This document shows, one piece after another, positions 9,168-58,917 of a stretch of DNA of 64,000 nt (positions within the stretch are counted from its first letter, which is position 1; each line of letters begins with the position of its first letter). The translations under genes were made by a program, and so were the position numbers. Under the pieces are notes generated by a model. The model saw only the letters and a program-made list of their open reading frames with translations, was not told the origin of the DNA and did not search any database. This DNA comes from Vulcanimicrobiota bacterium (GTDB lineage: Bacteria; Vulcanimicrobiota; Vulcanimicrobiia; Vulcanimicrobiales; Vulcanimicrobiaceae), in the NCBI GenBank assembly GCA_963735845.1, contig CAVTMN010000007.1:197014-261013 (forward strand). Direction: 5' to 3'.

Positions 9168-10549
9168 TGAAAGTCCCTGCTTACGTTATAGGGCTGGAGG
9201 ATATCTTGTACCGCGGAATCATTCGGGCGCTCAATGTTATTGCCATCGTGGCCCTAACGGCTTGTTCGTTTGGAGGCCGGTCGATGCTGCCGCAAGGCGC
9301 GTCGCCGGCACAACAGACCGGTTACGGTGACGTTCCCTTCGTCGGCGCCAACCCCATTCGCCGGCTCTGCGCTCCGCCGACCGGCACGCGCATGGCGTGC
9401 CTCGCGTATATGCGCACCGACTTCCAGCCGGCGATGCAGATGACGCCGATGCTCGGAGGCGACGGCGAGACCTGTCCCTTCGAAGGTGAAGCGTACTGTC
9501 CCAACGATCTGCAAGATGCGTATAAACTGCCGTCGCTTACGGCGGGTAAACTCAAGACCGTTGCGGTCGTCGATGCGTACGGCTACCATCATGCGGCCGG
9601 CGATCTCGCCGTCTATCGCAAGACGATGGGATTGAAGGCCTGCACGACGGCGACCAAGTGCCTGCGAATCGTCAATCAAGAAGGCCATTCGTCGCCGCTG
9701 CCGCCCGAGCCGCCGCCGAGCGACGACTGGAAGGGCGAGCAGTCGTTGGATCTCGACATGGTCTCGGCGATCTGTCCGAACTGTAAGATCGTCCTAGTTC
9801 AAACCAATAACAACGAGACCAGTAATCTCTACGCCGGCGTCAAGACCGCGTATACGGTCGGCGCCAAGTACATCGGCGCATCGTGGGGCGCTGCCGAAGA
9901 CTCGGGCAACTCAATCTTCCGCCATCCCGGCGTGGTCATCGCGGCCGCGGCCGGCGATAACGGCGGCGGCGGCGCGTACGGCGGCGGTCCGATTCGACCG
10001 TGCACGTATGCGTACGTGGTCTGCGTCGGCGGCTCGCACCTGACGCGTGCGGGCAACATGCGCGGTTGGAGCGAGACCGTTTGGAACGACTGGACCTACG
10101 ATCAGTGCGGCAACAGCGGCACCTCGCCGTGCGGCGCCACCGGAAGCGGCTGCAGCCGCAAGATCTCCAAGCCTGCGTGGCAGACCGATGCCGACTGTCA
10201 TATGCGGTCGGCGGCCGACGTCGCGGCGACCGCCTCGCTGCGTGCGCCCGTCGCGGTCTATAACTCGGAAGAAGGCGGTTCGGGCTGGCTTGCTTTTGGA
10301 GGAACCAGCGCGTCGGCGCAAATCATCGCTGCCGTTTTTGCCTTGGCCGGCAACGCCGGCGGTCAGACCGGCGCCAAAGGCATTTGGCAGCACCACACGG
10401 GCAATCTCTTCGACGTCACGAGCGGCAACAATCTCGATGCGAAGCTCGGCGTGACCTGCGCCTCGAGCGTGAAGTACATCTGCACGGCGCGCTTCGGCTT
10501 CGACGGTCCCACGGGTTGGGGAACTCCTAAGGGAATCGGCGCATTCTAG
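9168..10549 (+). CDS. Sedolisin-type (S53) serine peptidase, lipoprotein
   Basis: ATG 9168 and lipobox IVALTAC. GEQSLDLDMV supplies the Glu/Asp of the S53 catalytic set, and FGGTSASAQIIA supplies the nucleophile Ser. It is the intact distal part of the 1415-aa ORF. Confidence 0.8.
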
Positions 10550-23814: not shown

Positions 23815-24012
23815 ATGGATAAGATGCCGCACGAGCACTCCAACGGGACGGTGCATACGCACGAAGGCGACAAACCGGGCCACACGCACGATCATTTGCA
23901 CCCTCACGAGCATTACGACGGAACCGTCCACACGCACGAGCACAGCCACGACGGCTCGGATGCCGATCACCAGCACGAGCACGAAGAGGCTGCGCGCGAT
24001 GCCTCGAGCTAA
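23815..24012 (+). CDS. Histidine-rich small protein (candidate Ni/metal-binding peptide)
   Basis: GGAGG lies 8 nt upstream of the ATG. The 65-aa product has 17 His: MDKMPHEHSNGTVHTHEGDKPGHTHDHLHPHEHYDGTVHTHEHSHDGSDADHQHEHEE.., with GTVHTHE repeated twice. Confidence 0.6.
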   Translation: MDKMPHEHSNGTVHTHEGDKPGHTHDHLHPHEHYDGTVHTHEHSHDGSDADHQHEHEEAARDASS

Positions 24013-24364
24013 GGGATCGGGAAAACTTGGTCCGGTGAGATCGCTGCGGTTGCCGCTCGAACTCGATGGTTGGTTCGAGCAACGGCTGCGCGACGATGGG
24101 GCTCGCCCTGCGAGCGACATTCTCTTAGAGGCCGTACACGGCGGCTTACGCCTGCAGCCCGGTTATATGATTCGGCAGCACCGCGCGCTCGGCGAGCTGG
24201 TTCGGGCCGGCGACCGGATTCACTACGATTCGTACGTTCGCGCGCTGGCCGACTCGTTCGGGAGCGCGTACGTCAACCATCTCGAGGCGTGGCTCTTTGC
24301 CGACGGAACGCTTCCATTCGATACGGAAACCTCGACCGAAGCAGGAATTGCCGCTACGCGATAA
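23999..24364 (+). CDS. Ribbon-helix-helix (CopG/Arc-like) DNA-binding protein, tentative
   Basis: ATG 23999 overlaps the end of the His-rich ORF by 14 nt. VRSLRLPLELDGWFEQRLRDDGARPASDILLEAV fits a strand-helix-helix N-terminus. Confidence 0.45.
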   Translation: MPRAKGSGKLGPVRSLRLPLELDGWFEQRLRDDGARPASDILLEAVHGGLRLQPGYMIRQHRALGELVRAGDRIHYDSYVRALADSFGSAYVNHLEAWLFADGTLPFDTETSTEAGIAATR

Positions 24365-25318
24365 CGCTGCAGGGCGTGGAGTCCCATCGAGCCTGCCCAT
24401 GCTAGCGCGAACGCACCGACGATCGCGAATCCAAGCCAGCCCACCGAGACGTTCGCGCCCGCGATGCTCGCCAACTCGACGCCGCCAACGACGACGGCAA
24501 TCAGTACCGATGCCGTCGTGATGCCGAGATTGTAGTAGAGCTTGCGTTCGGGCTTGAGAAAGGCCCAACCGTACGCGCCGAGCATTAGGACTCCGTCGGT
24601 CGTATCGACGAGCGACATCCCGGCGGTAAACAACGCCGGGAAGATCAGGATCGCCCAGACCGGTAAGCCTTTACCGGCTTCGATCGCCGCGATGCCGAGG
24701 AGACCGACCTCGGTGGCGGTGTCGAAGCCGAGACCGAAAAGCACGCCGATAAGATACATGTGGCGGCTTCGCGTGACCAAGCGCAGCAGAGGCTTGAAGA
24801 AACGCCCCAGCAACCCGCGTCGATCGAGCGATTCGCCGAGGCTCTCCTCGCAGAACGTTCCGTTCTTGTCGCAGCCGCAGCAGCGCTTGCACGATGTCGA
24901 CCAGCACGAACGCGTTGATGGCGGCGATAACGAACAGGAAGGCCGCCGAAATGCCGGTGCCGGCCAGCCCCCCAAAGTTTTCCAAGCTCGGGAGGTGCGA
25001 GCGAATGCTTCCCGCGCCGAGTACGATGGCGAGCGTCAGCAGTACCACGATGGTCGAATGCCCGAGCGAGAAGAACAGGCCGACGCCGACCGGCCGTTGT
25101 CCCTCTTGCATCAGCTTGCGCGTGACGTTGTCGATCGCGCAGATGTGATCGGCATCCACGGCGTGGCGCAATCCGAACGTGTAGGCGAGCAGCGCCGTGC
25201 CTAACAACAGCGCGTGCGGCGGAGCGAAGAAACGAAAGGCGGCGACCCAGACGAGCACGTTGGCTCCAAGCAGGAGCGCGTACGTGATTACAATCTTCGC
25301 GCGCGTGGATTCGGCCAC
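24223..25318 (-). CDS. HoxN/HupN/NixA-family nickel/cobalt permease (NiCoT); one frame break
   Basis: Signature motifs RHAVDADHICAIDN and FFSLGHSTIV, then LFGLGFDTATEV in the second frame. The break is near ~24870. The 3' 140 nt overlap the convergent RHH gene, so the true stop may be earlier. Confidence 0.85.
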
Positions 25319-25372
25319 GCGATCGCGTTCTACGCTACGAAGACCCGAACCGCCGCGTTTCTGTAGACAAAT

Positions 25373-27961
25373 TCACGAGGGAGCGGTTTGTGCGAAACCG
25401 GTACGATCGCGCCGCATCGCGTCTTGTGCCAACGTTTGCGCCAGCTCTCGCCGAACTTCGGCGAGATATGAGGCGTACGGTGCGAACCAGCTCCAGCCGG
25501 CCACGTGCGCCGGCGTGCGATCGCTCCAGCTTGCCAGCAGCCGTTCCACGCGCTGCCGTTGCGACTCGCCCAATATCCCCGCGCCGCGTACCGAGTGCAG
25601 GACGTTCTCGGTCTCGCGAACGTCGCTGCCGACGTGCTCCCCAAGCGCGTATCCGTTTCTCGCGTTTTGAATTGACTCGCGATCTCCGAGTTGCGCGCGC
25701 GTCCGCGAGACGCACATCTTCAAGGCGTTGACGGCGCCTTTTCGGTCGAGCGCCGGCCAAAGGGCGGCGGCCAGCTCTTCGTTGACCGTGCCGCTCTCGA
25801 AGAGGGAGAGCGCGGCAAGCAGTTCGAGGCCGCGATCGGAGACGTGAAGGATCTCCGAGCCGCGCCGGACGTGACCGTGGATGACGTCGACGAAGAGCCG
25901 GTCGTGGCGCGCTCGCAGCGGCGATCGCGCGACGCGCGCGGCGAGACCTTTAAAAATTCCGTAATCTTCCAGTTCCGGCGAATCTACGAGCAGCTCGATC
26001 GACGTTTGAAGCGGCGGCGATTCGATCGAAGCGGCAATCGTGCGCGCCTCGAGCAGCCGGCGGCGTTGCGGCGGAGCGAGCAGCGCCGCGCATACGCGGA
26101 TGACGACCCGCAGAAAGTCGTTCTCGCTCCCGTCGATACGCTCGATTGCGCGATCCATCAACGCGACGGCCCGATCTCCGTCGTAAGAGGTTAGCGCCTC
26201 TTGAAGGTCGGCGAATGCCGCAGACTCTATTGCGTCTCCGTCCCGCGCACCGCTGACGACGAGGATCTGGCGTGCCGCCGCGACGCGATCGTCATCGTCG
26301 CGGAACCATGCCGCCTGCGCCACTGCCCGCGCCGCCTCGACGATGCGCTCGCTAGGCCCGGTGCGCAGGGCCGATGCCAGGCGCTCTTCGGCGAGTTTGA
26401 GGAGATCGTCCCAGTTGCCGTGCGTCGTCGCTTTTGCCGCAGCGATCTGAGCGCGCTCCTCGTCAAAGCGTAGATGTCGCGCTTCGTAGATCCCGGCCGC
26501 CTCTTCGACGAAACGGTCGGCATCGATGAAGCGACCCTGCTTGGCGGCGACCACGGCTGCAGTCATCAAAGCGAGGCGCTGTTCTTCGGGCGTTTCGCCG
26601 GGTGATGCCAGCGCGGCCAGGTCGGCGAGCGTTGCGCGCGCCTCCGCGAGCCGGTCGAGCTCGCACGCAAGCATCGCCCGCCGCACGCCGAGACGCCGGT
26701 AGAGCGCCGGAGAGGCGTCGGGCGAGATCGCCTGTTGCAGCGCTGCGGCTTCTTGGTAGAGACGCGCGGCGTCGGCACTACGCTGCCGGTATTTGAGCGC
26801 CGCAATCCACAAGTTGGGACGCGTCGCCAGCGACGAAACCGGAATCTTGGCGAGGGCGTCGACTAATCGCGAGGACGGCTGCTGCAAGGTTTCGAGAGGC
26901 AGGCGATCGAGAATGCCGGCTGCGGCCTCGCGTTCGCCGGCGACGTTGTAAAGCTCCGCGGCTCGCAAGAAGTCACCCACGCGCTCGTTTCCGCGCGCCG
27001 CTCGCAGTACGTAATCGGCAAAGTCGCTACCGTGCCGGGCGCGCAGTGCCGGGTGCAGCAACGGATGTAACGTATACGTTCCGGATTCGTACGTGATGAA
27101 GCCGGGGAGGCGCAATAAACCTTCGATAACCGGCGAGGCGTGTGCGATGCCGCTCGCAACGGAGATGTCTTCGAGCGTTGCGTGCGGGATGGCCGCCGCG
27201 GCCAGCATCGTCGACGTCATCTCCGCGGTTAGCGCCGAGAGCACCTCGTTGACGAGATACTCGTGCAGATCGGTCGGTATGGTGCCGAGCCGGTCGAGCA
27301 GTCCGCCGAGGTCGGCTTCGTAATGCGCGATGCGTGCCAGCAACAGCAGTGCGATCGGCCACCCTTCGGCCAAACGGACGATGCGATCGATCGTCGGTTC
27401 TGCGAGATCGGTGCCCTGGAAGATGGCCGCCGCTTCTTCGGCGTCGAGCTGCAACTCTTCGCGCGACAGCGTGAGCACTTGATGCGGCTCCAAGTAACGC
27501 GCGACGTCGAGCGGCAGGGGCCGTCGCGAACTTACTAGCAGCACGCGCTCGGCCGGACGCGCAGCCAGGAGATCTCCGATGAGCGCAAGCACGCTGGGCT
27601 GCCCGGCGATAGTATCGGCGCTTTCGAGAATCAACAGCGCGCGCTCTTGACGGAGCTTCCAGAACTCGAGCAGCGCCCGACTCCAGGCGGCTTCGCCGGC
27701 TTCGGTCGCGTGCAGCGCCAATCGGGTGCGCGCGATGGCCTCTCCGCCGGGCGATTCGCCGGCGAGCGCCGCCATCAGACGTCCGGCGAAGTCGACGGTT
27801 CCGGCAAGCTCGGCGCAGTTGCAAATCGCGTGACGATCGAATCGGCGAGCGAAAAGCTCGGCGAAATCCGTCTTGCCGTAACCCGGCGGGGCGCAAAGAA
27901 GTACGAGGCGCGGTTCGGCTGCACCGAGGCGGGCCAGCAAGCGCCGGCGGGCGAGAATCAT
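25373..27961 (-). CDS. MalT-like STAND ATPase with C-terminal OmpR/SARP-type winged-helix plus BTAD-like module
   Basis: ATG 27961 overlaps the hypB stop (ATGA). Walker A is [11 protein letters not shown], and [13 protein letters not shown] is MalT-like. A long helical-repeat middle follows. The C-terminus ([25 protein letters not shown]...[22 protein letters not shown]) looks like a trans_reg_C/SARP wHTH. The 862 aa are intact. This is the distal part of the 995-aa track ORF. Confidence 0.72.
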
Positions 27962-28641
27962 CCAGCCGGAGCGAGCGATTTCGTGCGGATCATCTCCTCG
28001 AGTAGCGAGAACCACTCGTCCATCCCTGCTCCGGTTCGCGCCGAAAGCTCGAGAATCCGCGCCTCTGGATTGACTTGGCGGATGCTGTGCGATCGCTGCC
28101 GCGCGATCGTAGCCCACGGCCTCGGCGATGTCGATCTTAGTGATCGTCGCGACCTGCGAAGTATTGAACGCCAGCGGATATTTGAGCGGCTTGTCCTCGC
28201 CTTCGGTCACGGAAAAAAGCACGACGCGCAGGTCTTCACCGAGATCGTATTCGGCCGGACAGATCAGGTTGCCGACGTTCTCGATAAAGAGCACGTCGAA
28301 GCGGCGCGTCGATCCAATCGTCGAGTGCCTTCGGCAATCATGTCGGCGTCGAGGCGGCATTCGGCACCGGTGGTGATTTGACGCACGGCGGCGCCGTCGC
28401 GGCTCAAACGTATCGCGTCGTTGTCGGTGGCTTGATCGCCGACGAGCACGCCGACTTTATAGCGAGGTCCAAGCCGTTCCAGCGTGCGTTCGAGCAGCGT
28501 CGTTTTACCGGAGCCGGGGCTCGACAGCACGTTGACGACGAGCGTTCCGCTCGCAGCAAAGCGTTCCCGAAGTCGGTTTGCGATCGCGTCGTTCTTTACC
28601 ATGAGATTACGCGCGATAGCGATGACGCGCATCTGGTTCAT
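27958..28641 (-). CDS. hypB: Hydrogenase nickel-incorporation GTPase HypB; two frame breaks
   Basis: [43 protein letters not shown] / [42 protein letters not shown] / [26 protein letters not shown]. Breaks near ~28330 and ~28085. There is no His-rich or CxxCGC N-terminus. Confidence 0.9.
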
Positions 28642-28985
28642 GCCGGAACCTCCATTGCGACGAGTTCCATTTCACGTCCCCGAACGACGCGAGGCGAGAC
28701 GGTTTCACAGTCAGGGCAGAGTAATCCCGAGCCGGGCCGCGGTGCGCGTTCGCCGAGACACCGCTCGCAGTAGACGACCAGCGGAATCTCTTCGAGGCGC
28801 AGTTGACTGCCTTCGCAGATCGTCTCGGCCGTGACGGCATCCCAGGAGAAGAGCAAGGCGTCGCGGACGATGCCGCTCAGCGCTCCGATGCGGACGTGGA
28901 CCGCATTGACGCGGTCGATCCCCTGCTCGCGGGCGGTCGTTTCGACGCCCTCTAAGAGACTGAGCGCTACCGAGATCTCGTGCAA
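28638..28985 (-). CDS. hypA: Hydrogenase nickel-insertion protein HypA
   Basis: TTG 28985 is preceded by AAGGAAGG at 7 nt and gives the canonical MHEIS N-terminus. Zn site CERC...CPDC. ATGA overlap with hypB. Confidence 0.85.
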   Translation of the reverse strand: MHEISVALSLLEGVETTAREQGIDRVNAVHVRIGALSGIVRDALLFSWDAVTAETICEGSQLRLEEIPLVVYCERCLGERAPRPGSGLLCPDCETVSPRVVRGREMELVAMEVPA

Positions 28986-29027
28986 ACGTTCGCCTTCCTT
29001 GCGACAGATCGGTCGAGCATTAACCAT

Positions 29028-29370
29028 AACCGTTGGCGGGGGATTTGAAAAGCGGGTTCAGCGCCGGTGACCCGCCGGGTGCTCGCTCACTCGTAACCGT
29101 TCGGTAACGCCCTTTCGCCTGCCGGTTGCCTACGGAATTTAGGGCGCGCGTTCGCTCGGGAGCGGCCGTTCGCGCAGAGCCTCAGCGAATCTCAAAAGCC
29201 GGCGGGTGCAGTAACAATTCGGTAACCGATTTGTGCGCATTTCCCCGATAAAACAGCAGCCGCACACCCTTGTAATTCGCAATTGTTTTCACTAGCCTGA
29301 TTAGTACGGTGTCCTGCGCGCCGCTGCGCGAGGTTCGGTTTTGCGGCGCATTACGTGTGAGGATAATTGC
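29028..29370. promoter_or_regulatory. Divergent hypA / hydrogenase structural-gene control region
   Basis: 343-nt non-coding gap. TTCGGTAAC occurs twice (29100-29108 and 29218-29226). The second copy sits inside the near-palindrome AATTCGGTAACCGATTT (29216-29232). A sigma70-like TTGTAA (29270-29275), 17-nt spacer and TAGCCT (29293-29298) lie upstream of ATG 29371. Confidence 0.35.
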
Positions 29371-30392
29371 ATGGCGGAAACAGTCGTAAACGTCCTCTGG
29401 ATCCCGGCCGGACTTAGCTGCGACGGCGATTCGGTAGCGCTAACGGGCGCGATCGCAGCCTAGCATCGAGGAGATCGCCCTCGGCGCCCTTCCCGGACTG
29501 CCCCCCGTCAAGTTCCACTGGCCGCTGATCGAGTTTAGTTTGGGCGGCTCGGAGTTTCTCGAGGCCTTTTTCAAGGCCGAACGCGGCGAGCTCGACCCGT
29601 TCGTTTTAGTGATCGAAGGCTCGATCGCCAACGAAGAGATCAAAAAAGAAGGCTACTTCACGGGCTTTGGCAACGCGCCGGGAACCGATCAGCCGATTAC
29701 GTTCAGCGGTTGGATCGATCGCTTATCGCCCAAGAGCGTGGGCCATTTTGGCCGCTGGAACGTGCGCGACGTACGGCGGCATCCATGCGATGGCCGGCAA
29801 TCCGACCGGAGCGATGGGCATTCTCGATTATCTCGGCTGCGACTGGAAATCGAGCGCGGGCGTTCCCATCGTTTGCGTACCCGGATGTCCGATCCAGCCG
29901 GACAATCTCTCGGAAACGATTCTCTATCTGCTTTGGCAGGCTGCAGGACGAGCTCCGATGATTCCCACTCGACGACGCGGGCCGGCCGACCTGGCTCTTC
30001 GGCAACACCGTGCACGAAGGTTGCGATCGGGCCGGTTACTACGAGCAGGGCGAGTTCGCCACGGAATACGATTCGCCCACGTGCTTGGTCAAGCTCGGCT
30101 GCTGGGGACCGGTCGTTAAGTGCAACGTTCCCAAGCGCGGCTGGATGGGCGGCGTCGGAGGCTGTCCCAACGTCGGCGGAATCTGCATCGGCTGCACGAT
30201 GCCGGGCTTCCCCGACAAGTTCATGCCGTTCATGGACGAGCCGCCGGGCGGCAAGATCTCGTCGACGGTCACGCACCGCGACCGGCACGGTCGATCAAGG
30301 CATTGCGCAACTTCACGACGGCAACGCTCGACAAGGAGCCGAGTTGGCGCCATAAGGGCAAGCAGCTCACGACGGGCTACATTAAAGGCTGA
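29371..30392 (+). CDS. hhyS: [NiFe]-hydrogenase small subunit, group 1h/5 type (no Tat signal); about four frame breaks
   Basis: GAGGA lies upstream of ATG 29371. The stitched sequence reads: MAETVVNVLWIPAGLSCDGDSVALTGA / QPSIEEIALGALPGLPPVKFHWPLIEF..DPFVLVIEGSI / AILAAGTCATYGGIHAMAGNPTGAMGILDYLG..VCVPGCPIQPDN / WLFGNTVHEGCDRAGYYEQGEF..VKLGCWGPVVKCNV..GGCPNVGGICIGCTMPGFPDKFMPFMD / ALRNFTTATLDKEPSWRHK. Breaks near ~29450, ~29740, ~29965 and ~30275. Confidence 0.9.
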
Positions 30393-30412
30393 CGACGGAG
30401 CGTACGAGAACG

Positions 30413-32208
30413 ATGGCTATTAAAGATCTTCCCGGCACCGTCACCGGAACTCAGCCTTCGCGGCTGGTCGAGATGTCGTGGGATCCGATTACGCGGATCG
30501 TCGGAAGCCTCGGAATCTACACGAAGATCGACTTCCAGAAGAAGATCGTCGCCGAATGCCACGCGACCTCGTCGATCTTCCGCGGCTACAGCATCTTCAT
30601 GAACGGCAAAGATCCGCGCGACGCGCACTTCATCACGTCGCGCATCTGCGGAATCTGCGGCGACAACCACTGCGTCTGCTCGGTCTACGCGCAGAACATG
30701 GCGTTCGGCGTGCGGCCGCCGGCGATGGGCGAGTGGATCATGAATCTCGGCGAAGCCGCCGAGTACATGTTCGATCACAACATCTTTCAGGAGAATCTCG
30801 TCGGCGTCGACTACTGCGAGAAGATGGTTCGCGAGACCAATCCGAGCGTTTGGGAGAAAGCGAAGAAGACCGAAGCGCCGAACGCCGAGAATTCACGGCT
30901 ACAAAACGATCGCCGACATCATGACGTCGCTCAACCCGTTTACCGGAGACTTCTACCGGCAAGCACTGCAGATCAGCCGCTACACGCGCGAGATGTTCTG
31001 CCTGATGGAAGGGCGCCACGTGCATCCGTCGACGCTCTATGCCGGCGGAACGGGAACGGTCGCGACGCAGCAGCTCTTCACCGACTACTACTCGCGGCTC
31101 ATGCGCTACATCGAATACATGAAGGTCTGCGTGCCGCTGCACGACGATCTCTTCGACTTCTGGTACCAGGCGCTGCCCGGATACGAGCATAACGGCGAGC
31201 GGCGCATCTTGCTGGGCTGCTGGGGCGCGTTCCAAGATCCCGACCATTGCGACTTCCAGTATAAGAACATGACGCAACTGGGGGCGCCAGATGTTCGTGA
31301 CGCCGGGCGTCGTCGTCGACGGGAAGCTGGTGACCAACGATCTCGTCGCAGATCAATCTCGGCGATTCGCATTCTGCTCGGCCATTCGTACTACGACGAT
31401 TGGGAGAACGAGGAGATCTTCGTTCCTCAAGATCCGCTCGGCAATCCGGTCGACCGGCGTCATCCGTGGAACATGCACACGCTGCCGACGCCCAAGAAAC
31501 GCGACTTCGCCAACAAGTACAGCTGGGTGATGTCGCCGCGCTGGTTCGACGGCAAGGATTATCTTGCGCTCGATACCGGCGGCGGCGCCATCGCGCGCCT
31601 CTGGTCGACCGCGCTCTCCGGTTTGGTGGACATGGGCGGCTACGTCAAGGCGACCGGCAACAGCGTGCAAGATCAATTTGCCCAAGAGCGCGTTCAGCGG
31701 GCCGGTTTCCTTCGAGTGGAAGGTGCCGAAGTGGTCGAACACGCTGGAGCGCAATCGCGCGCGCACGTACTTCCAAGCGTACAGCGCCGCAGCGCGCTGT
31801 TCTTCCTCGATAAAGCCTTCGAGGAACTCAACGCCGGCAGAACGCGTTCGTGGGAGCCGTTCACGGTGCCGAAGGAGGCGATCGGCTGCGGTTTTACCGA
31901 GGCAGTGCGCGGGCGTTCTCTCGCATCACATGGTCATCCGCGACGGCAAGATCGCCAACTATCATCCGTGGCCGCCGACGCCGTGGAACGGGAACCCGCG
32001 CGACATCTACGGAACTCCGGGACCGTACGAAGACGCGGTGCAGAACACGCCGATTCACGAGGAGAACGGACCGGACTCTTTCAAGGGCATCGACATCATG
32101 CGCGCGGTGCGCAGCTTCGATCCCTGTCTGCCGTGCGGCGTTCACATGTATCTGGGCGAAGGGAAGAGCATCGAGACGGTCCATTCACCGCTCGCGCCGT
32201 TCGGATAA
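30413..32208 (+). CDS. hhyL: [NiFe]-hydrogenase large subunit, group 1h/5 type; about six frame breaks
   Basis: N-terminal Ni-binding motif HFITSRICGICGDNH and C-terminal RSFDPCLPCGVHMY. Conserved blocks appear alternately in ORFs 30413.., 30921.., 31291.. and 31564... Breaks near ~30895, ~31285, ~31350, ~31670, ~31795 and ~31915. Confidence 0.92.
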
Positions 32209-32218
32209 ACGTCAAGGG

Positions 32219-32763
32219 ATGAGCTCCGACGTCGCTGCCGTTGGAAGGCGGATCGAAGAGCTGCTCGCTGGTTTCGGCACGCCTGGGGAGCACGGCGAAG
32301 CCCGCGAGCGGGCGGAGGAGCTCGTTCGGACGATCGTTACGCTGTACGGTGAGGGACTCGAACGTCTGCTCACGATCGTGCACGCCGAGCTTGGCGAGCG
32401 TTCCGACGAGCTCTTCGGACGGATCTGCGAAGACAGGCTCGTCGAGGGGCTCCTCTGCCTGCACGGATTGCATCCCGTCTCGCTCGAGGACCGCATCGAG
32501 GCACGCGATGCAATCGGTGTTGCCGTACATCCGGTCGCACCACGGAAACATGGAGCTCTCGCGGATCGACGGCGACGTCGTCTATCTTGCGCCTCGAGGG
32601 CAGCTGCGACGGCTGCGCCGCCTCGGCCTCGACGCTCAAGCAGGCCGTCGAACGCGCCATTCTGGAACGCGCGCCGGAGATTCGGGAAGTGCGCGCCGAG
32701 GAAAGCCTGCTCGCGCCGAGCGGCTTGCCGGAAACCTCGCTCCGGGTCGTCGCACGGGTGTGA
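32219..32763 (+). CDS. NifU-C-terminal-domain protein of the hydrogenase cluster; two frame breaks
   Basis: MSSDVAAVGRRIEELL...LHGLHPVSLEDRIEA / PYIRSHHGNMELSRIDGDVVYL / RLEGSCDGCAASASTLKQAVERAILERAPEI. Breaks near ~32500 and ~32590. Confidence 0.7.
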
Positions 32764-33404
32764 GTGATGTGAATAACGGTGGAGACAATCAGGCGCTGCT
32801 GCAGCGCATGCTGCGCAAGCGCCCGCCGCCCGGCGAGCGCTGTGACTTCTGCTCGGCGCCGCTTGCGCCGGAGCACAGCCATCTCATCGAGCTTGCCGCG
32901 CGGCGGATTCTCTGCTCCTGCCGGCCCTGCTACATCGTCTTCGAACCGGAAGGCGCCGCAGTCGGGCGATACCGTCCGATTCCCGAGCGTTACCTCGAGC
33001 TCGCGGATTTCGCGCTCGAAGATGCGACATGGGACGCGCTCGCCATTCCGATCGGTCTAGCTTTCCTCTTTTACAACTCGCTGGAAAAGAAGATGGTCGC
33101 CTTTTATCCCAGTCCGGTCGGCGCGACCGAATCGTTGCTGCCGCTCGATACGTGGGGCGAGATCGCGGCGGCCAACCCCGTTCTGTCGACGTTGAGTCCC
33201 GACGTCGAAGCGATCCTGATACAACGCTCCGCGAGAGCGGCCGCGCTGCTTCATCGTGCCGATCGACGCCGCCTACGAGCTGGTCGGCACGATCCGGAGC
33301 ACGTGGAAGGGCTTCGACGGCGGCGAGGAGGCGCACCGCCGCATCGGCGAGTTCTTCGACAAGGTCGAGGAACGGGCGCGCGGCAGCGTGACGCGCGCAC
33401 GTGA
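32760..33404 (+). CDS. Conserved hydrogenase-cluster protein (DUF5947-like, tentative); two frame breaks
   Basis: GTG 32760 is in a GTGA overlap. ERCDFCSAPLAPEHSHLIELAARRILCSCRPCYIVFE...AFYPSPVGATESLLPLDTW.. / CFIVPIDAAYELVGTIRSTWKGFDGGEE. Confidence 0.55.
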   Translation: MSDVNNGGDNQALLQRMLRKRPPPGERCDFCSAPLAPEHSHLIELAARRILCSCRPCYIVFEPEGAAVGRYRPIPERYLELADFALEDATWDALAIPIGLAFLFYNSLEKKMVAFYPSPVGATESLLPLDTWGEIAAANPVLSTLSPDVEAILIQRSARAAALLHRADRRRLRAGRHDPEHVEGLRRRRGGAPPHRRVLRQGRGTGARQRDART

Positions 33405-33405
33405 C

Positions 33406-34044
33406 ATGATCGATCTCTCGTTTAGCATTACCGGCGCTCGCGTCGATCGCTATGCAGCGTCGCCGTGCATCCTGCTGCGAGTTGCGCGTGCAGGAGCGAA
33501 CCGGTGCACGCGTGGGCGCGATCGCGCTGCGGGCGCAGATTCAGCTCGAGGTCGCGCGCCGGCGCTACCTCCCTGAAGAGAGCGCGCTGCTCGCCGAACT
33601 CTTCGGCGAGCCGTCGCGTTACGCGCAAACGCTCAAACCGATGCTCTGGACACACGTCGCGCAGACGGTGCTGGCATTCCAAGGCGAAGGCGAGTTCGAT
33701 TTGCCGGTGCCCTGCAGCTACGATTTCGAAGTAGCGTCGAATAAGTATCTGGCGTCGCTGCAGGAAGGCGCGATACCCATCAACCTGCTCTTCAGCGGCG
33801 CGGTCTTCGTAGACGGGCCGGACGCCGTTACGCCGGAGTTCGTCCCGTGGAGTTGCGAGGCGCGCTACGCGCTCCCGGTGACGCTGTGGCGCGAAGCGAT
33901 GGAGGCTTTCTTCCCCAACTCCGCATGGATCCGCGTCAATCGCGACCTCTTCGACGAACTGCGGCGCTTCAAGACGGCGACCGGCTTCCGACGTGGGACG
34001 CCGCGCTCGAACGCCTCTGCGAGCTGGCACGGGTGAAGTCGTGA
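33406..34044 (+). CDS. Conserved hydrogenase-cluster protein (DUF6084-like, tentative); two frame breaks
   Basis: MIDLSFSITGARVDRYAASP / ALRAQIQLEVARRRYLPEESALLAELFGEPSRYAQTLKPMLWTHV...FSGAVF.. / TWDAALERLCELARVKS*. Breaks near ~33480 and ~33985. Confidence 0.55.
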
Positions 34045-35323
34045 ACTCAATGGCGCCGGCCCTCGCCGTCGCCAACGCGGTGCTGTACGAAGGCTATATT
34101 CTCTTTCCGTACACCGCGTCGGCAAAGAAGAATCGCATCCGCTGGCAGTTCGGCGTGATCGTGCCGCAGGCGTACGCCGACGGCGGAACGGGCGAGCCGG
34201 CCGAGGCGCAGACCGAAATCTTCGTCGAGCTGCGAAGAGTCGACGCGCGTAACGGTATTGGTCCGCTTTCTCCAAGTCGAGCCGCGCTGGGTTCAACGGC
34301 TCGAAGACGGCGACTTCGTTACGGTCGATGCGCTCGAGATCGATGGGCGTCGCATGGTCACGTTCGACGAAGGCGTCGAACGCGAAGTCGCGCTCTGCGT
34401 CGATCCGGCGATGCCGTCGATCGCCGTTCCGATCGCATTCGGCGCGGAGGAACGGATCGAACCGCTGCACGATGCCGCGGGCAACGCTTCGCGGTCGAAT
34501 TCTTCGCCGGCGCTGGGCGCTGCACGGCTCGGTGACGGTCGATTGCGAGCCGGTGGTCGCGAAGCCGTCGCTGCGCAAACTGCGCGTTCGCATCGCGAAT
34601 GCGTCGGCCGTCGTCGAGGGCGAGCGAAGCTCGGCGCTGCGGACGGCGTTCGTTTCGACGCACACGCTGCTCAATGCCGAGCGCGGCCGTTTTCTCTCGG
34701 TGCTCGACCCGCCGCACGAGGCCGAAACGGAAACCGCCGCGCTGGTCAATCGGCACACCTGGCCGGTTCTGGTCGGCGACGGCGAAGCCGACGCGCAGCG
34801 CTCGCCGCTCGTGCTCTCCTCGCCGATCATTCTGTACGACTTTCCGGCGGTCGCGGCGCAGAGCGAAGGCGATACCTTCGACGCTACCGAGATCGACGAG
34901 CTGATGATGCTGAGCGTGCGCAGCCTCTCCGACGAGGAGCGCGACGAAGCGCGAGCGACCGATCCGCGCGCCCGCGCGATCGTCGAGCGCGCGGAGCGAT
35001 TCGGCGCCGAGGAGCTGACCGAGCTGCACGGCGTGCTCGACATCCCGTCGATGGATTGCGTATTCGTGCAAGGAACGAAGATCGCGAAGGGCTCGGTGGT
35101 TCGGCTCCATCCCAAGCGCCGCGCCGACGTCTGGGATCTCTTTCTCGACGGCAAACTGGCTACGGTGCGCGCCATCCATCAAGACGTCGACAATCAAATG
35201 TACGTCGCGGTGACCGTCGACGACGACCCCGCCAGCGAACTGCACGACTGGTACGGGCGCTCGCTCTTCTTTTATCCCGACGAAGTCGAACCGGCGTCGA
35301 TGGTTGCGGAGAGCTCGGGGTGA
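34041..35323 (+). CDS. Conserved hypothetical protein of the hydrogenase cluster (~425 aa); two or three frame breaks
   Basis: GTGA-coupled start. VANAVLYEGYILFPYTASAKKNRIRWQFGVIVPQ.. / VRFLQVEPRWVQRLEDG.. / ..ILYDFPAVAAQSEGDTFDATEIDELMMLSVRSLSDEERDEA...LHDWYGRSLFFYPDEVEP. Confidence 0.5.
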
Positions 35324-35817
35324 AGCTGCTGGTGGCCGGTATCGGCAACATCTTTTTCGGCGACGACGGATTCGGACCGGAGGTCGCACGCGCACTGGCT
35401 AGCGACGAGTTCCCCGGCGTCAAGATCGAAGACTTCGGCATCCGCGGGCTCCATCTCGCCTACGAGCTGCTCTCGGGCTACGACCGCGCGTTCCTCATCG
35501 ATGCGGTTCCCCGAGGCGGACGGCCCGGCACGCTTTATTTGATCGAGCCGGATTCGCCGCGTTCGGCAACGATGCCCGACGCGCACCGAATGGATCTCGA
35601 AAATGTCTTTGCGTTTCTCGACCTGCTCGGCGGCAAGCCGCCGCCGATTACCCTCATCGGGTGCGAGCCGTCGCAGATCGACGAAGAGATCGGGCTCTCG
35701 CAACCGGTTCGCGAAGTGGTCGTGCCGGCGGCCGACCTCGTGCGCAGACTCCTGAGCGAAACCTTAGCCGCGACCAATGGCGGCGGAAAAGAGAGCAAGG
35801 TATGGTCAGAGGCATAA
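35320..35817 (+). CDS. [NiFe]-hydrogenase maturation endopeptidase (HupD/HyaD/HybD family)
   Basis: GTGA-coupled start. VKLLVAGIGNIFFGDDGFGPEVA...FGIRGLHLAYELL..AFLIDAV...HRMDLENV. The product is intact. Confidence 0.85.
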   Translation: MKLLVAGIGNIFFGDDGFGPEVARALASDEFPGVKIEDFGIRGLHLAYELLSGYDRAFLIDAVPRGGRPGTLYLIEPDSPRSATMPDAHRMDLENVFAFLDLLGGKPPPITLIGCEPSQIDEEIGLSQPVREVVVPAADLVRRLLSETLAATNGGGKESKVWSEA

Positions 35818-36059
35818 TCGTAGGCGCGATTGCCTTCGCAGTTGCATTCGCAGCCGAACGCGTCATTGCCGGCATGCAGCCGGATCTCGATCGGTACGAC
35901 GCAATGCGCAAGATGTCGGGTGAGGAGCCGCTTCCCAAAGAGCTGCTCTCGACGGTTGGATCGCTGTTCTCCGGGTCGGTGGACAAGAGCGCCGTTTCCT
36001 CGCTGATCGACTCTCTCACCAACGACGCCGTACGCTACGCAAAGATGCGAGGCATGTGA
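35802..36059 (+). CDS. Small protein with one N-terminal hydrophobic helix
   Basis: ATG 35802 overlaps the protease gene by 16 nt. MVRGIIVGAIAFAVAFAAERVIAG..., 85 aa. Confidence 0.45.
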   Translation: MVRGIIVGAIAFAVAFAAERVIAGMQPDLDRYDAMRKMSGEEPLPKELLSTVGSLFSGSVDKSAVSSLIDSLTNDAVRYAKMRGM

Positions 36060-41020: not shown

Positions 41021-41249
41021 GCTTTATGGGACGCGTTCGTGTCCCTATACCGCCGAACTGCGCTCCGAACTGCAGTGGGACGGCAAGCCGTTCGTCGAGT
41101 ACGACGTCGAAGCCGACGCCGGCGCGCTCCGGCGTCTCTTCGCGCTCGTCAGCGGCTCGGTCAGCGTGCCGGTGCTCGTCGAAGACGGGCAGGTCATACA
41201 GGTCGGCTGGAACGGTCAAGGCTGTTACGTAGCCGCCGCACGGACGTGA
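41010..41249 (+). CDS. Glutaredoxin/NrdH-fold small protein (CPYT motif)
   Basis: MPLELYGTRSCPYTAELRSEL..FVEYDVEAD..VPVLVEDGQVIQVGWNGQGCYV. It overlaps the SIS gene by 11 nt and is GTGA-coupled to hypF. Confidence 0.6.
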   Translation: MPLELYGTRSCPYTAELRSELQWDGKPFVEYDVEADAGALRRLFALVSGSVSVPVLVEDGQVIQVGWNGQGCYVAAART

Positions 41250-43484
41250 TCGAGGCCCGGCACGTACGCATCACCGGGATCGTGCAGGGCGTCGGCTTCC
41301 GCCCGTTCGTCTACCGGCTCGCCCGCGCGCACGGCCTGCACGGCTGGGTGCTCAACGCCGAGACCGGCGTCGAGATACACGTCGAAGGGGCACCATCAGC
41401 GCTGCCAGGTTTTCTCGGTGCAATCGAATCACAGGCGCCCGCCGCGTCGCGCATCGCCTCGTTCGACATCGTTCCGACGCTGGTGTCGGGATTCGACGAC
41501 TTCACCATTCGCGAGAGCGTGCGAACGAGCCGCCCGACGGTGCGCGTCTCGCCGGATTTGCCGGTCTGCGAGGATTGCTTGCGCGAAATGGGCGACCCGA
41601 ACGACCGCCGCTTCGGTTACCCGTACATAAACTGCACCAACTGCGGGCCGCGCTACAGCATCATTCTAGGTTTGCCGTACGACCGTCCGCAGACGACGAT
41701 GCGCGACTGGCCGATGTGCGAGCGCTGTGCCGCCGAATATCACGATCCGCTCGACCGCCGCTTTCACGCGCAGCCCGTCGCGTGTCCCGACTGCGGGCCA
41801 TCGTACTATTTGACGGTCGACGGCGTCACGGAGCGCGGGGACGCGGCGGTTTCTCGCGCCGCAGCGCTGCTGCGCGAGGGTGCGATCGTCGCGATCAAAG
41901 GTCTGGGCGGCTACCACTTGGCTTGCGACGCAACGCAGCCCGAGGCGGTCGCGCGCGCTGCGCGAACGAAAGTATCGAAAAGAGCGGCCCTTTGCGGTGA
42001 TGACGCGCGATTTAGAATCGGCCGCAGCATTGGTGGACCTCTCGCCGGAACACGAACGCCTGCTGCAATCCATGCAGCGGCCGATCGTGCTGGCTCCGGC
42101 AAAGGTTGAGTTAGAGGGCGTCGCGCCGGAGAATCGCGACTACGGCGTCATGCTGCCGTACACGCCGCTGCATCATTTGCTCTTCCGGCACGGCGCGCCC
42201 AGCGTGCTGGTGATGACGAGCGCGAACCGCTCCAGCGAACCGATCGCGTACGCCGATGACGACGCGTTCGAGCGGCTCTCCGGAATCGCCGACGCGTTTT
42301 TGACCGGCGAGCGCGAGATCGCGCGCCGCGTCGACGACTCGGTGGCAGCGGTCGGTCCGTACGGCCCGGTCGTGCTCCGTCACGCGCGCGGAGGCGCGCC
42401 GGCTGCGATCGCCCGGCTACCGACGCGCCGTCCGACGCTTTGCACGGGCGCCGATTTGAAGAACGCGGTTACGCTGGTCGTCGACGGGCAAGCATTTACG
42501 AGCCAGCATATCGGCGATCTCGATCACTACGGATCGTTCGCGGCGTTCAAAGAAACGATCGCCGATCTCTGCACGATGTACGACGTGCCGATGGGCGAGC
42601 TTCTGGTCGTCCACGACGCGCATCCGGAATATGCATCGACCCAGTACGCTCGCACGCTTCCGGGCGAACATCGAGCCGTACAGCATCATCGCGCGCACGT
42701 CGCCAGCGTGCTGGTCGAACGCGAGGCGTTCGATACGCGCGTCGCCGGGATCGCTTTCGACGGAACTGGTTACGGCGACGACGGAACGATTTGGGGTGGA
42801 GAGATCTTCACCGGCAGCTTGCGCGAGGGCCTAACGCGTGCCGTTTGGCTGCGTGAAGCCAAGCTACCCGGCGGCGACGCCGCCGCGCGCTATCCGGTGC
42901 AAGCGGCGGCCGGCTTTTTGAGCGAGCTCGACGATTTGCCCGATCTTACCGCCGCGCCTTTCGACTTCCCGGAACGTTACACCAAAGCGAAGCGGTTAAC
43001 CGAGAGCGGCATCCGTACGTTTACCACGACGTCGGTCGGCCGGCTCTTCGACACGGTGGCCGCGCTGCTGGGCTTCACGCGTCCGATCACGTTCGAAGGG
43101 CAGGCGGCGATGTGGGTCGAGCACCTCGCCTGGTCGGACGCGAGCGAAGATAGCTATCCTTTCCCCGTCGTCGCTGCGCGGCTGGACTTTCGCCCGCTGC
43201 TGGCGGCCGTGGTCGCCGATCGCCGGCGCGGCCGCGACGTGCGCGAGATCGCGGGCGCCTTTCATCGCGCGCTTGCGGACGCGATCGCGAGCGCCGTCGA
43301 GATGCTCGAACCAAAGCAGATCGTTGCGTCGGGCGGCGTCTTCCAGAACGCACTGCTGGTCGAACTGCTCGCCCAGCGTTTCGGCGACCGGCTTTGGATC
43401 AACCAAAAGGTTCCCGCCAACGACGGCGGCATCAGCCTCGGCCAGGCGGGCATCGCCGCCGTTTACTCAGGCACGACCGCTTAG
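41246..43484 (+). CDS. hypF: Carbamoyltransferase HypF; one frame break
   Basis: Acylphosphatase domain (RITGIVQGVGFRPFVYRLA), two Zn-finger pairs (CEDCLREM..INCTNCGPRYS; CERCAAEY..ACPDCGP), YrdC-like (IKGLGGYHLACD) and Kae1-like C-terminal half. The break is near ~41950. Confidence 0.9.
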
Positions 43485-49853: not shown

Positions 49854-49896
49854 AATCACGAATCAAGTACGCACTCTAAAGTAGCCTAGGAACCTA

Positions 49897-50298
49897 ATGG
49901 TAACCACTAAACTGCCCTACGTGCCCTCGGACGCCGAGGTCTACAATCAACGAGACTGCCCTTCGCGGCTCATCCTAGAGCGGATAGCCGATAAGTGGAC
50001 CGCGCTGATCATCGGCATTCTCGCGCAGTCCGAGCGCCGCCGTTTCAACGAATTGCGCCGCATGATCGGCGGGATCTCGCAGAAGATGCTGACCCAAACG
50101 CTGCGCGATCTCGAGCGCGACGGGCTGGTGAAGCGGACCATCTATCCGGAAGTTCCGCCGCGCGTCGAGTACGAGCTCACACTATTGGGCCGCACGCTCT
50201 GCGCCCCGCTCGGTTCGCTCACGCAGTGGGCGCACGATCACATCGACGAGGTCAAGCGCGCGCAGACTAAGTTCGACGTGGGGCGGGCGCGTGGCTAA
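49897..50298 (+). CDS. HxlR-family winged-helix transcriptional regulator
   Basis: CPSRLILERIADKWTALIIGIL..RRFNELRRMIGGISQKMLTQTLRDLERDGLVKRTIYPEVPPRVEYELT. Confidence 0.85.
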   Translation: MVTTKLPYVPSDAEVYNQRDCPSRLILERIADKWTALIIGILAQSERRRFNELRRMIGGISQKMLTQTLRDLERDGLVKRTIYPEVPPRVEYELTLLGRTLCAPLGSLTQWAHDHIDEVKRAQTKFDVGRARG

Positions 50299-56916: not shown

Positions 56917-58917
56917 TCAGGCCGCCGTCGTGCGTTTCGTCGGAAGAACGATACGCATTCTCGTGCCCATTCCGGGCTCAGCTTCGATTTGGACGTCACG
57001 CGCCAGGGACGCAATCAGAAAAAGACCGCGTCCGTTTTCGTTCAGTGCGTCCGCGGGCAACGCTGCCTCGAATCGCGGCAGTCCGGGCCCGGCGTCAGAA
57101 ACGATAACGACCGGATACGCATCCGTCCAATCGACGTCAACGCTGACCGAGCCCGGCGCATGCTCGACCGTGTTTGCGAGTGCCTCACCGATGATGAGCT
57201 CGGCACGAAACAGCTCGTCTTCATTCGACGCGAACGATCGTATGAAGTGCGTGATCTCGCGGCGTAATGCATGCGCACCGAGCGGATTTCTTGAATCGTA
57301 ACTCCAGGATTTTTGAAACCGGACGCTGAGTTGAAGCACCAGGAGTACCGTATCGTCGGTGGGTCTTTGGTCACCCATGATGCTGCGTTGGATGAGAAGC
57401 GCGGGACGATCCACGTGCGGGTCGTCAACTAGATGCTTAACTGCCTGTAATACCGCTCGTTCGGTGCGTTCGATATCTCGCTTGAACTCAGTGAGCCCAT
57501 CGGTGTAGAAGAGAATCGCCGCATCGGGCTCCAAAGCTATGGTGTGCGTTTCCGCCGCGATCGGAATGCCGATGCCGAACGGGAAGCCTCCGTGTGGAAG
57601 CGATCGTGCTGCGGTACGCGGGCTCGCAACGATCGGCGGCGGATGTCCCGCGCCGGCGTAACTGAGCGTAGAGAGATCCTGGCTCAAAATGGCGACCAAC
57701 GCGGTGACCGGAGCCTCCTGGCTAGATCCTAGCGCCTGGTCGACCTTGGCAAGGATCGCGGCGGGATCCGGGGCGTCGAAGGCTGCGGTGAAAATGCTGC
57801 GCCGAAGGCGCGCAGCCGTTACGGCCGCGTCGAGTCCATGACCGGTCACGTCGCCAATCGAAAAAGCAATGCGTCCGTCGGGCAGCTCGAAGCCATCGTA
57901 CCAGTCTCCACCGATCAGCGCTTCGCGCTCGGCCGCGATGTAAAGGGCATCGGAGCGAACGCCACGGCGCTGCGGGAGATGCTCGGGAAGGAACGCGGCT
58001 TGCAGCATTACCGCCGATCGCTGCGTCTCCGTCAACAGTGCTTGGAGAGCGAGACGAGCGGTCCGCCTTTCGGCGGTGATCGCGCCAAGCACCAGTCCCG
58101 TTATCGCCAGAACCGACATCCAACTATCAAGTTGGACGAGTCGTGAATCGAGAGAACCCGAGGCCCAGGGACCCAAACCATGCGATGTCGCCCAGATGGC
58201 CAGACCGCCAACAACTGCAATTGCTGCAGTCATTTCGCGCTGTCGAAAACGCAGAGCCGTCCAAATTATGAACGGGTAGACCGAAAAGCGTAGCGGGATA
58301 TTGCTTAGAAACGAAATTGAGCTTGACGCAAGCAACGTGGCGCCGAGAGCGGCAAGCTCGAGCGTGCTGCCATTTGGAGATTCCTTCTGCCTCGCGCCGA
58401 TCCACGAGAGCAACAACGGCGTAACGAAGAGCACGCCCATCGCGTCGCCCGCCCACCATACCCACCAAACCGATAGGAAAGCACTCCACGGGATAATTCG
58501 AGCAAGTGCGAGTTGGGCGACGCCATTCGTCGCGGATACCGTCATTGCAATCGCCGAACCGAACAGCACGAGGAGAAGAACGTCGCGCACGCGCTGTAGC
58601 GCATTATCGAAACCGAACCGTCGCAGGAGGAAGTTGCCGAACAACGGCGCGAGCGTATTCCCCGTCGCGATCGCCGCGGCTGTCAAAACTGGCTCGAAGC
58701 TGAGTGCATTACTCACAAACGCTCCGAGCCAAATCCCCGGCCAGACGCGATACCCCCAGATCAAGATAGCGGCGAGCGCAATGCCGGTCGGCGGCCACAC
58801 CGCCGTCACTTGCTTCGTCGTGAACGCCATCGTGAAGCCAAACTTCGCTGCAGCAATGTATGCGACGGCCACCAAAAGCGGGACAAATATTGTCCGAGGA
58901 AGCGTCTTCAAGTGCAC
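56917..58917 (-). CDS. MASE1 membrane sensor fused to a PP2C/SpoIIE phosphatase and an RsbW-type HATPase domain
   Basis: Intact 666 aa. MASE1-like N-terminus (VTAVWPPTGIALAAILIWGYRVWPGIWLGAFVSN). PP2C domain (IGGDWYDGF..FSIGDVTGHGLDAA..YTDGLTE). C-terminal GEALANTVEHA..VSDAGPG..GRGLFLIASLA. Confidence 0.8.
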   Translation of the reverse strand: MHLKTLPRTIFVPLLVAVAYIAAAKFGFTMAFTTKQVTAVWPPTGIALAAILIWGYRVWPGIWLGAFVSNALSFEPVLTAAAIATGNTLAPLFGNFLLRRFGFDNALQRVRDVLLLVLFGSAIAMTVSATNGVAQLALARIIPWSAFLSVWWVWWAGDAMGVLFVTPLLLSWIGARQKESPNGSTLELAALGATLLASSSISFLSNIPLRFSVYPFIIWTALRFRQREMTAAIAVVGGLAIWATSHGLGPWASGSLDSRLVQLDSWMSVLAITGLVLGAITAERRTARLALQALLTETQRSAVMLQAAFLPEHLPQRRGVRSDALYIAAEREALIGGDWYDGFELPDGRIAFSIGDVTGHGLDAAVTAARLRRSIFTAAFDAPDPAAILAKVDQALGSSQEAPVTALVAILSQDLSTLSYAGAGHPPPIVASPRTAARSLPHGGFPFGIGIPIAAETHTIALEPDAAILFYTDGLTEFKRDIERTERAVLQAVKHLVDDPHVDRPALLIQRSIMGDQRPTDDTVLLVLQLSVRFQKSWSYDSRNPLGAHALRREITHFIRSFASNEDELFRAELIIGEALANTVEHAPGSVSVDVDWTDAYPVVIVSDAGPGLPRFEAALPADALNENGRGLFLIASLARDVQIEAEPGMGTRMRIVLPTKRTTAA

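Follow-up and report, generated by a model that had tools for sequence, protein, structure and literature searches.

A MalT-like STAND protein with a C-terminal SARP-like module as a candidate dedicated regulator of a group 1h [NiFe]-hydrogenase cluster in Eremiobacterota

Much of the atmospheric H2 that soils take up is consumed by group 1h [NiFe]-hydrogenases, which also sustain "atmospheric chemosynthesis", a process of which the uncultured phylum Eremiobacterota is a flagship, and little is understood of how the enzymes are turned on. Which protein might turn them on is a question raised by a locus in a 64,000-nucleotide (nt) stretch of DNA from a Vulcanimicrobiota bacterium (assembly GCA_963735845.1, contig CAVTMN010000007.1, positions 197,014 to 261,013), referred to here as the window, in which a gene for a protein of 862 amino acids (aa) follows the hydrogenase accessory genes hypA and hypB. 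A first-pass annotation, made from the DNA letters alone, had read this gene as encoding a STAND ATPase with a C-terminal winged helix and had suggested that it is a dedicated regulator of the hydrogenase and nickel regulon. The linkage of the gene to the cluster and a pair of conserved, specific candidate binding sites support that interpretation, and we consider it likely that, in the one Eremiobacterota lineage where it is found, the protein serves the group 1h hydrogenase regulon as a cluster-dedicated transcription factor with a nucleotide switch (STAND/NLR-type). The gene and the parts of its product are the following.

25373..27961, minus strand: regulator gene, 862 aa (open reading frame; 67 homologues at 47-91% identity; AlphaFold2 model; no indels against loci L001 and L002)
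27062..27961, minus strand: nucleotide-binding/oligomerisation module, aa 1-300, with P-loop core, helical arm and winged helix (MalT homology, Foldseek, motif conservation)
25967..27061, minus strand: all-helical repeat region (TPR/SUPR-like), aa 301-665 (DSSP of the model; Foldseek match to 6mfv)
25637..25906, minus strand: OmpR/SARP-type winged helix-turn-helix (HTH), aa 686-775, with three beta strands, alpha1-alpha3 and a beta-hairpin wing (Trans_reg_C, model, Foldseek)
25376..25636, minus strand: three helices, a truncated BTAD-like extension, aa 776-862 (alignment with the AfsR SARP domain and EmbR)

The listing of open reading frames gives a 995-aa frame (25373..28360, minus strand) whose last 862 codons, from the ATG at 27961, are the regulator; it is longer than the gene because a mis-framed middle piece of hypB, making up its first 133 codons, shares the frame. 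The start at 27961 is backed by the 67 aligned homologues, with the N-terminus MxLxRxRLLARL, and the ATG (27961-27959) overlaps the hypB stop codon TGA (27960-27958), read from the frame of the hypB C-terminus, as ATGA, a junction that is identical in the frame-intact relative L001 and is also found in L029. The translational coupling to hypB that had been proposed from this overlap is borne out in the closer clade of loci but does not extend to L031, where 79 nt separate the two genes. The gene contains zero indels relative to L001 and L002 (both at about 94% nucleotide identity), its flanking genes containing many, and both of the peptide motifs quoted earlier (including CAPPGYGKT) are found in its translation. 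Against a pseudogene or an artefact, which was considered, speaks the open reading frame, which is intact and conserved.

The N-terminal part of the protein is MalT-like, as had been claimed. The window protein matches the NCBIfam MalT model over aa 3-455 with an expectation value (E) of 2e-21 and 75.7 bits, which does not reach the equivalog cut-off of 537 bits, and a profile built from 67 sequences matches the MalT nucleotide-binding domain 8bob in the PDB (2.5e-15, aa 3-326), while a single-sequence Pfam scan returned AAA_16 at a sub-threshold E of 7e-4. In a full-length AlphaFold2 model obtained from the family alignment (predicted local distance difference test, pLDDT, 88.5) the nearest structures found by Foldseek were the STAND-TPR protein 6mfv (704 columns) and MalT, with a template modelling score (TM, by target) of 0.68 for 8bob_C. 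All 64 ungapped sequences have Walker A (G27-x-G29-K30-[ST]31), the acidic position of Walker B (hhhh-E113) is E or D in 63 of 67, R139 is among the conserved NTPase motif residues, and G200 and P202 of the GxP motif (G200-W-P202) are invariant; in Y296-x-x-H299-PLL, which we take to be the equivalent of RYHPLF in MalT, H299 is invariant and Y296 nearly so. Pfam, NCBIfam and profile scans gave no NB-ARC match in the regulator, and Pfam found no LuxR-type HTH (GerE/LuxR, PF00196) in the window protein or in the family members scanned. The long helical-repeat region of the first reading is present in the model at aa 301-665 and is presumed to be the signal-sensing domain.

For the C-terminal domain single-sequence Pfam and NCBIfam scans proved too weak, and the whole-protein Foldseek search, dominated by AAA+/ORC/RFC matches, was uninformative about it; the decision came from scans of the family and from structure prediction, including a separate C-terminal model. 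When 49 family members (46 orthologues and three distant relatives) were scanned singly with Pfam, Trans_reg_C was found at E<=0.01 in 22, and the 67-sequence profile gave a weak match at aa 694-752 to the DNA-binding domains of OmpR-type response regulators. The separate model of aa 665-862 (pLDDT 90.3) is of OmpR topology, with three strands and three helices ahead of a beta-hairpin wing, and ends in three more helices, and its top PDB matches are the AfsR SARP domain (8k60_J, 8hvr_I) and EmbR, over 180-185 columns at TM 0.65-0.67, plain OmpR-type domains such as those of PhoB and CovR ranking lower at about 85 columns. The recognition helix (N745-757) is essentially invariant among the 67 sequences and is the most conserved segment of the protein. 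As for the BTAD-like segment that had also been proposed, the orthologues have three helices (aa 780-858) whose counterparts in the alignments to AfsR and EmbR are the first helices of BTAD, but the Pfam BTAD domain (PF03704, about 146 aa) was found in none of the 46 orthologues scanned; in the three distant relatives the same scans placed an AAA domain at the N-terminus, Trans_reg_C at about 712-789 and BTAD at about 792-940. The family-level and structural evidence thus confirms a C-terminal module consisting of an OmpR/SARP winged helix and a three-helix, BTAD-like remnant, and the first reading of this end of the protein was not refuted by the domain scoring.

The order of domains is not peculiar to this protein. 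About 70 full-length orthologues at 47-91% identity were found by database search, all of them from metagenome-assembled genomes (MAGs) of Eremiobacterota (Ca. Cybelea, Tumulicola and Baltobacteraceae), together with a few further relatives at about 30% identity. When 1.84 billion representative proteins were searched exhaustively with the profile, 393 clusters scored E<=1e-30, and among the best 150 of these most are matched end to end (profile positions of about 3-880) and measure about 850-970 aa, the rest being shorter and partial. Ten sampled matches all carry a C-terminal Trans_reg_C and/or BTAD domain (six both, one BTAD only, and the three shortest, at 852-876 aa, Trans_reg_C only), and every named family member comes from Eremiobacterota/Vulcanimicrobiaceae and is automatically annotated as "SARP family" or "BTAD domain-containing", which makes "NTPase first, SARP last" a family trait. 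The C-terminal placement of the SARP module, singled out earlier as unusual, therefore does differ from that in described SARPs but is not unique, being common to a large Eremiobacterota family. This family of paralogues (at least 150 clusters, counted at the 50% identity level) appears to be restricted to Eremiobacterota and uncharacterised; the hydrogenase-linked orthologues make up essentially one 50%-identity cluster (P0081), and the neighbourhoods of two distant paralogues that were examined, P0072 and P0074, contain no hydrogenase genes. SARP modules have been described only in N-terminal position and the SARP family has been treated as actinomycete-specific (PMC10972967, PMC10936776), and no description of the regulator or of a C-terminal SARP architecture was found in the literature searched. 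One paralogue, P0093 (1154 aa), has an additional N-terminal adenylate/guanylate cyclase domain in front of the NTPase-to-SARP arrangement.

What ties the regulator to the hydrogenase is its position, among the following genes.

27958..28641, minus strand: hypB, nickel GTPase (orthologue matches TIGR00073 at 4e-82; three single-base insertions, at about 28327/28331, 28310/28311 and 28088)
28638..28985, minus strand: hypA, nickel metallochaperone (orthologue scores to TIGR00100; start TTG at 28985)
24223..25318, minus strand: nicO, HoxN/NixA-type nickel permease (orthologue matches TIGR00802 at 7e-105; split by a 1-base insertion at 24865)
29371..32208, plus strand: hhyS-hhyL, small and large subunits of a group 1h [NiFe]-hydrogenase (divergent from hypA; single-base insertions in both)

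The start of hypA is most likely the TTG at 28985 (MHEIS..., with AAGGAAGG upstream), as in all orthologues, the ATG at 29027 that would give a longer hypA frame falling inside the predicted hypA -10 element. The permease gene nicO follows the regulator at a distance of 54 nt and shares its strand, and the unit of hypA, hypB, regulator and nickel permease recognised in the first pass is thus present. The orthologous large subunit scores 1059 bits to 5aa5_C, HofG of the actinobacterial-type hydrogenase of R. eutropha, which identifies it as group 1h, of the high-affinity, O2-insensitive type. The window cluster goes on with two yceI genes, hypC, hypD, hypE, a gene for a SIS protein and hypF, and the regulator is the sole DNA-binding protein seen among the annotated genes of the cluster.

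A scan restricted to one genome per GTDB species found 28 loci, in which synteny was determined by tblastn with the neighbours of L029. All loci with enough flanking sequence have the order hycI, an unknown gene for 423 aa, DUF6084, DUF5947, NifU-like, hhyL and hhyS, diverging from hypA, hypB and the regulator, and further contigs beyond these species-level loci have the same order of hhyS-hhyL and divergent hypA-hypB-regulator; the orthologues are therefore linked to hydrogenase genes wherever this could be assessed. The permease gene adjoins the regulator in most loci, with the closer clade carrying it on the regulator strand and the more distant clade in convergent orientation, and in one locus a PNPOx gene and a HypF-like gene stand in its place. 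A single locus is not labelled Eremiobacterota: L019 (contig DATHOO010000230.1, labelled Candidatus Acidiferrales) is an 8.7-kb contig carrying hypA-hypB-regulator-nicO at typical Eremiobacterota identity and is, given its shortness and this identity, probably mis-binned. The MAG MFD05841.bin.3.297 contains two complete copies of the cluster (L001 and L027), each with its own pair of the repeats described below and with regulators that are only about 56% identical; either this genome holds two paralogous group 1h systems or the bin is mixed.

The intergenic region between hypA and hhyS holds the elements through which the regulator may act.

29093..29108, plus strand: site A, GTAACCGTTCGGTAAC, hypA-proximal direct repeat (conserved in orthologous loci)
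29211..29226, plus strand: site B, GTAACAATTCGGTAAC, hhyS-proximal direct repeat (conserved in orthologous loci)
29270..29298, plus strand: predicted hhyS promoter, TTGTAA-17 nt-TAGCCT (from conservation; start site at about 29305)
29023..29051, minus strand: predicted hypA promoter, TTTTCA-17 nt-TATGGT (the TATGGT/TATGCT/TATACT element recurs in the loci; start site near 29016)

The first-pass annotation had pointed to TTCGGTAAC sites between 29028 and 29370, and these are real, conserved and specific, as judged from the window, from the orthologous loci and from control loci. They are the 3' halves of GTAAC-N6-GTAAC direct repeats with half-sites in an 11-bp register, so that the repeat is effectively a GGTAAC(G) heptamer and a 4-nt spacer. 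Sites A and B are the sole exact matches to GTAAC-N6-GTAAC in the 64 kb, where 0.01 would be expected, and both lie in this intergenic region; matches to the motif with one mismatch at 9321-9336 (minus), 49889-49904 (plus) and 58410-58425 (plus) are at about chance level. Exactly two repeats, with a freely varying 6-nt spacer, are present in 23 of 25 orthologous hypA/hhyS intergenic regions, the exceptions being L016, with one N6 copy and one N5 variant, and L022, with an N5 variant only, and in the 487 kb of these loci there is one additional match.

As a control, 80 group 1h loci (1.01 Mb, mostly Actinomycetota) were fetched with HhyS as the query. One of the 80 encodes the regulator, and this same locus is the only one with the motif, the other 79 having neither, which indicates that the gene and the repeats appear and disappear together. 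Among the 79 are loci of other Eremiobacterota genera with the same divergent layout of hhyS and hypA-hypB, namely L036 (Ca. Velthaea), L037 and L038 (Ca. Eremiobacter antarcticus); since these three lack both the gene and the repeats, the regulator is a lineage-specific addition.

Further evidence comes from the spacing of the sites relative to the promoters. Of the 24 loci that have a site B, 23 conserve the predicted sigma-70-like hhyS promoter (TTGnAn-17-TAGCCT), and between the end of site B and the -35 element of this promoter there are only ever 12, 22, 32 or 42/43 nt, a distance that changes in steps of one helical turn (Rayleigh p of about 3e-10 uncorrected for relatedness of the loci, or 0.009 with distinct values only). 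The spacings between A and B cluster at 84, 94, 105-107 and 114-119, and site A lies 14, 33, 42-44, 53-54, 63-64, 73-74 or 81 nt from the -10-like element of hypA (TATGGT/TATGCT). A class II, SARP-like arrangement making use of the A-rich GATAAA at 29247-29252, 20 nt after site B, was set aside because this element is not conserved in the loci with short spacing, whereas TTGnAn-17-TAGCCT is. Two features of the hhyS leader were also seen: a 14-nt inverted repeat (29279-29292 and 29357-29370) that connects the spacer of the predicted hhyS promoter with the region of the ribosome-binding site, and, in L012, L013, L016, L020, L023 and L027 of the more distant clade, a conserved hairpin, CCGTCG-CAA-CGACGG. 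Rfam gave no RNA family in 24000-29600.

SARPs are known to bind direct repeats spaced by 11 or 22 bp as side-by-side protomers (PMC10936776, PMC10972967), and a mechanism may be proposed along these lines. The MalT-like N-terminal NTPase would act as an ADP/ATP switch and oligomerisation module under the control of the helical sensor region, which would detect some signal, so that the activity of the regulator would depend on both nucleotide and signal. In the active and probably oligomeric state, two SARP-like winged helices would lie head to tail, side by side, on each 22-bp site of GGTAAC(G) half-sites, in the manner of AfsR on the afs box (PMC10936776), and the invariance of the recognition helix is consistent with that of the half-site; sites A and B being on the same helical face, cooperative occupancy would be allowed. 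From its phased positions upstream of the -35 elements the protein would most likely activate both hhyS-hhyL and the genes that follow, and hypA-hypB-regulator(-nicO), which would entail positive autoregulation. Activation is preferred over repression because the sites are upstream and phased, and because of the family to which the protein belongs.

A number of points weigh against this proposal. The window protein alone matches Trans_reg_C only at E=0.055 (aa 706-769), below the Pfam threshold, and has no Pfam BTAD match, and with its BTAD part cut to three helices the contacts that AfsR makes with RNA polymerase may not apply. The two sites have the same orientation despite the divergent promoters and are centred at about -55 to -87 from the predicted transcription starts, classical SARP boxes overlapping the -35 element; site A is no more than moderately phased with the hypA -10 (p 5e-5 to 0.02), the statistics are uncorrected for the relatedness of the loci, and a generic scan for sigma-70 promoters and terminators flagged neither promoter in the intergenic region, both having been deduced from conservation. 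The 28 loci were moreover ascertained via the regulator itself, and the control set includes only four loci of Eremiobacterota.

The position of the sites, unlike that of classical SARP boxes, also fits a different explanation, in which the GTAAC repeats serve as operator for another protein, such as an orphan OmpR-type response regulator whose gene is elsewhere, the STAND protein having another target or a non-transcriptional role, perhaps as an NTP-dependent scaffold during the maturation of the hydrogenase. OmpR/PhoB response regulators, too, are typically associated with direct repeats in 11-bp register, and Foldseek matches their domains to the C-terminal module too. The co-occurrence of gene and motif is nevertheless strict (about 25 of 25 loci with the gene and 0 of 79 without it, including related Eremiobacterota of the same layout), the segment of the regulator that is most conserved is the one expected to read DNA, and no other regulator is conserved among the annotated genes of the cluster, all of which leaves this explanation improbable. 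Only slightly less improbable is that the protein is a nickel-responsive regulator which senses Ni(II) or Ni-loaded HypA/HypB and mainly controls uptake by NicO and insertion by HypAB instead of answering to energy or carbon status, a model that differs from the one preferred here only in the signal. It would agree well with a gene whose start overlaps the hypB stop and which lies between hypB and a HoxN-type permease gene, in a shared operon in the closer clade. The invariant residues of the regulator, however, include no Cys/His cluster typical of nickel sites, and in the more distant clade, where nicO is convergent or replaced by the PNPOx and HypF-like genes, no repeat is found upstream of nicO; to our knowledge, no nickel regulator is a STAND protein.

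Whole-protein Foldseek also listed Avs3 and Avs4, and an Avs-like anti-phage STAND sensor that came to lie in a hydrogenase cluster by chance was therefore considered as well. PADLOC matched 0 families, on which grounds a defence system was rejected, no nuclease or other effector domain was found by Pfam or in the model, the C-terminus is instead a DNA-binding SARP module, and the position of the gene is fixed and vertically conserved in one metabolic cluster across species whose regulators differ by up to 50%; we give this last explanation hardly any credence. A transcription factor dedicated to the hydrogenase cluster and acting through the GTAAC repeats is thus the reading that we retain.

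The condition of the surrounding genes needs separate comment. Compared with L001 and L002, about 40 single-base insertions are present between 23048 and 35780, most densely in 28088-35780, with roughly 33 in 28000-36000; hypB has three, hhyS five, hhyL nine and nicO one, and others lie in downstream maturation genes, so that hypB, hhyS, hhyL, the NifU-like, DUF5947 and DUF6084 genes, the 423-aa unknown and nicO are broken. The breaks also concern 41039-43484, and hypF is split into two open reading frames. Substitutions relative to L001 in the broken genes fall overwhelmingly on third codon positions (for example 9/3/73 for the three positions in hhyL), which means that these genes were under purifying selection for essentially all of the divergence and, together with the strong excess of +1 insertions, points to errors of assembly or consensus, or to events that are very recent at most. 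The frame breaks are therefore most likely an artefact of sequence quality, and the idea that the hydrogenase genes truly became pseudogenes while the regulator was retained was rejected as the main explanation on account of the third-position bias and of the fact that almost all breaks are +1. It follows that the intactness of the regulator, which had been noted as one of the few long genes of the "island" to have no frame break, is no evidence of selective retention and means little biologically; the absence of insertions from 24866-28087 is non-random.

The regulator shares features with several known systems. With AfsR and the large SARPs of Streptomyces (SARP, NB-ARC, TPR) it has in common a SARP module, a STAND nucleotide switch and helical repeats; the AfsR SARP domain is the closest match of its C-terminal model, and its candidate operator is, like the afs box, a direct repeat in 11-bp register (PMC10936776). 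It differs in that the SARP module is C-terminal (aa 686-862 of 862) rather than N-terminal, the NTPase is MalT-like rather than NB-ARC, BTAD is truncated to three helices, the candidate sites are upstream of the -35 element instead of overlapping it, and it belongs to Eremiobacterota and a hydrogenase cluster rather than to an actinomycete host and antibiotic genes. With MalT and the LAL regulators it shares the N-to-C order of STAND NTPase, helical sensor and C-terminal DNA-binding domain and, with MalT in particular, homology over aa 3-455 and the GWP and YxxHPLL motifs, whereas in those proteins the DNA-binding domain is a LuxR-type HTH instead of an OmpR/SARP winged helix, and the MalT score stays far from the equivalog level (75.7 against 537 bits). 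The whole architecture is shared by the Eremiobacterota paralogues (e.g. P0072-P0074, P0083 and P0087), which align over profile positions 3-880 at about 30% identity but are 920-970 aa long, have a full BTAD and are annotated as "BTAD domain-containing putative transcriptional regulator" or "DNA-binding SARP family transcriptional activator".

Dedicated regulators encoded together with hydrogenase and hyp genes are also represented by HoxA/HoxBC/HoxJ, the known regulators of [NiFe]-hydrogenases being made up of an NtrC-type response regulator, a histidine kinase and an H2-sensing regulatory hydrogenase; no components of this type were seen in the annotated parts of the cluster. The mycobacterial high-affinity hydrogenase Huc, which is related to the group 1h enzymes, still lacks a known direct transcription factor, a 2026 study in the model organism M. 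smegmatis having found no factor that binds its promoter, and none is reported there for Hhy (PMC13098282).

In conclusion, the regulator offers a testable candidate for the switch that turns on a group 1h enzyme: with one gene, two candidate operator sites and two predicted promoters located at single-base resolution, the proposal can be tested in vitro or in a heterologous host, with no need for cultivation. We lean cautiously towards regarding it as the first identifiable pair of transcription factor and operator dedicated to a group 1h hydrogenase that oxidises atmospheric H2, in which a domain-permuted MalT-type STAND regulator with SARP output, outside actinomycetes, would have its sensor gate both H2 scavenging and nickel supply, and as the founding member, and one to which a function can be assigned, of a large Eremiobacterota-specific family. 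The SARP module occurs beyond actinomycetes and beyond the N-terminal position, and can stand in for the LuxR HTH of a MalT-type STAND regulator.

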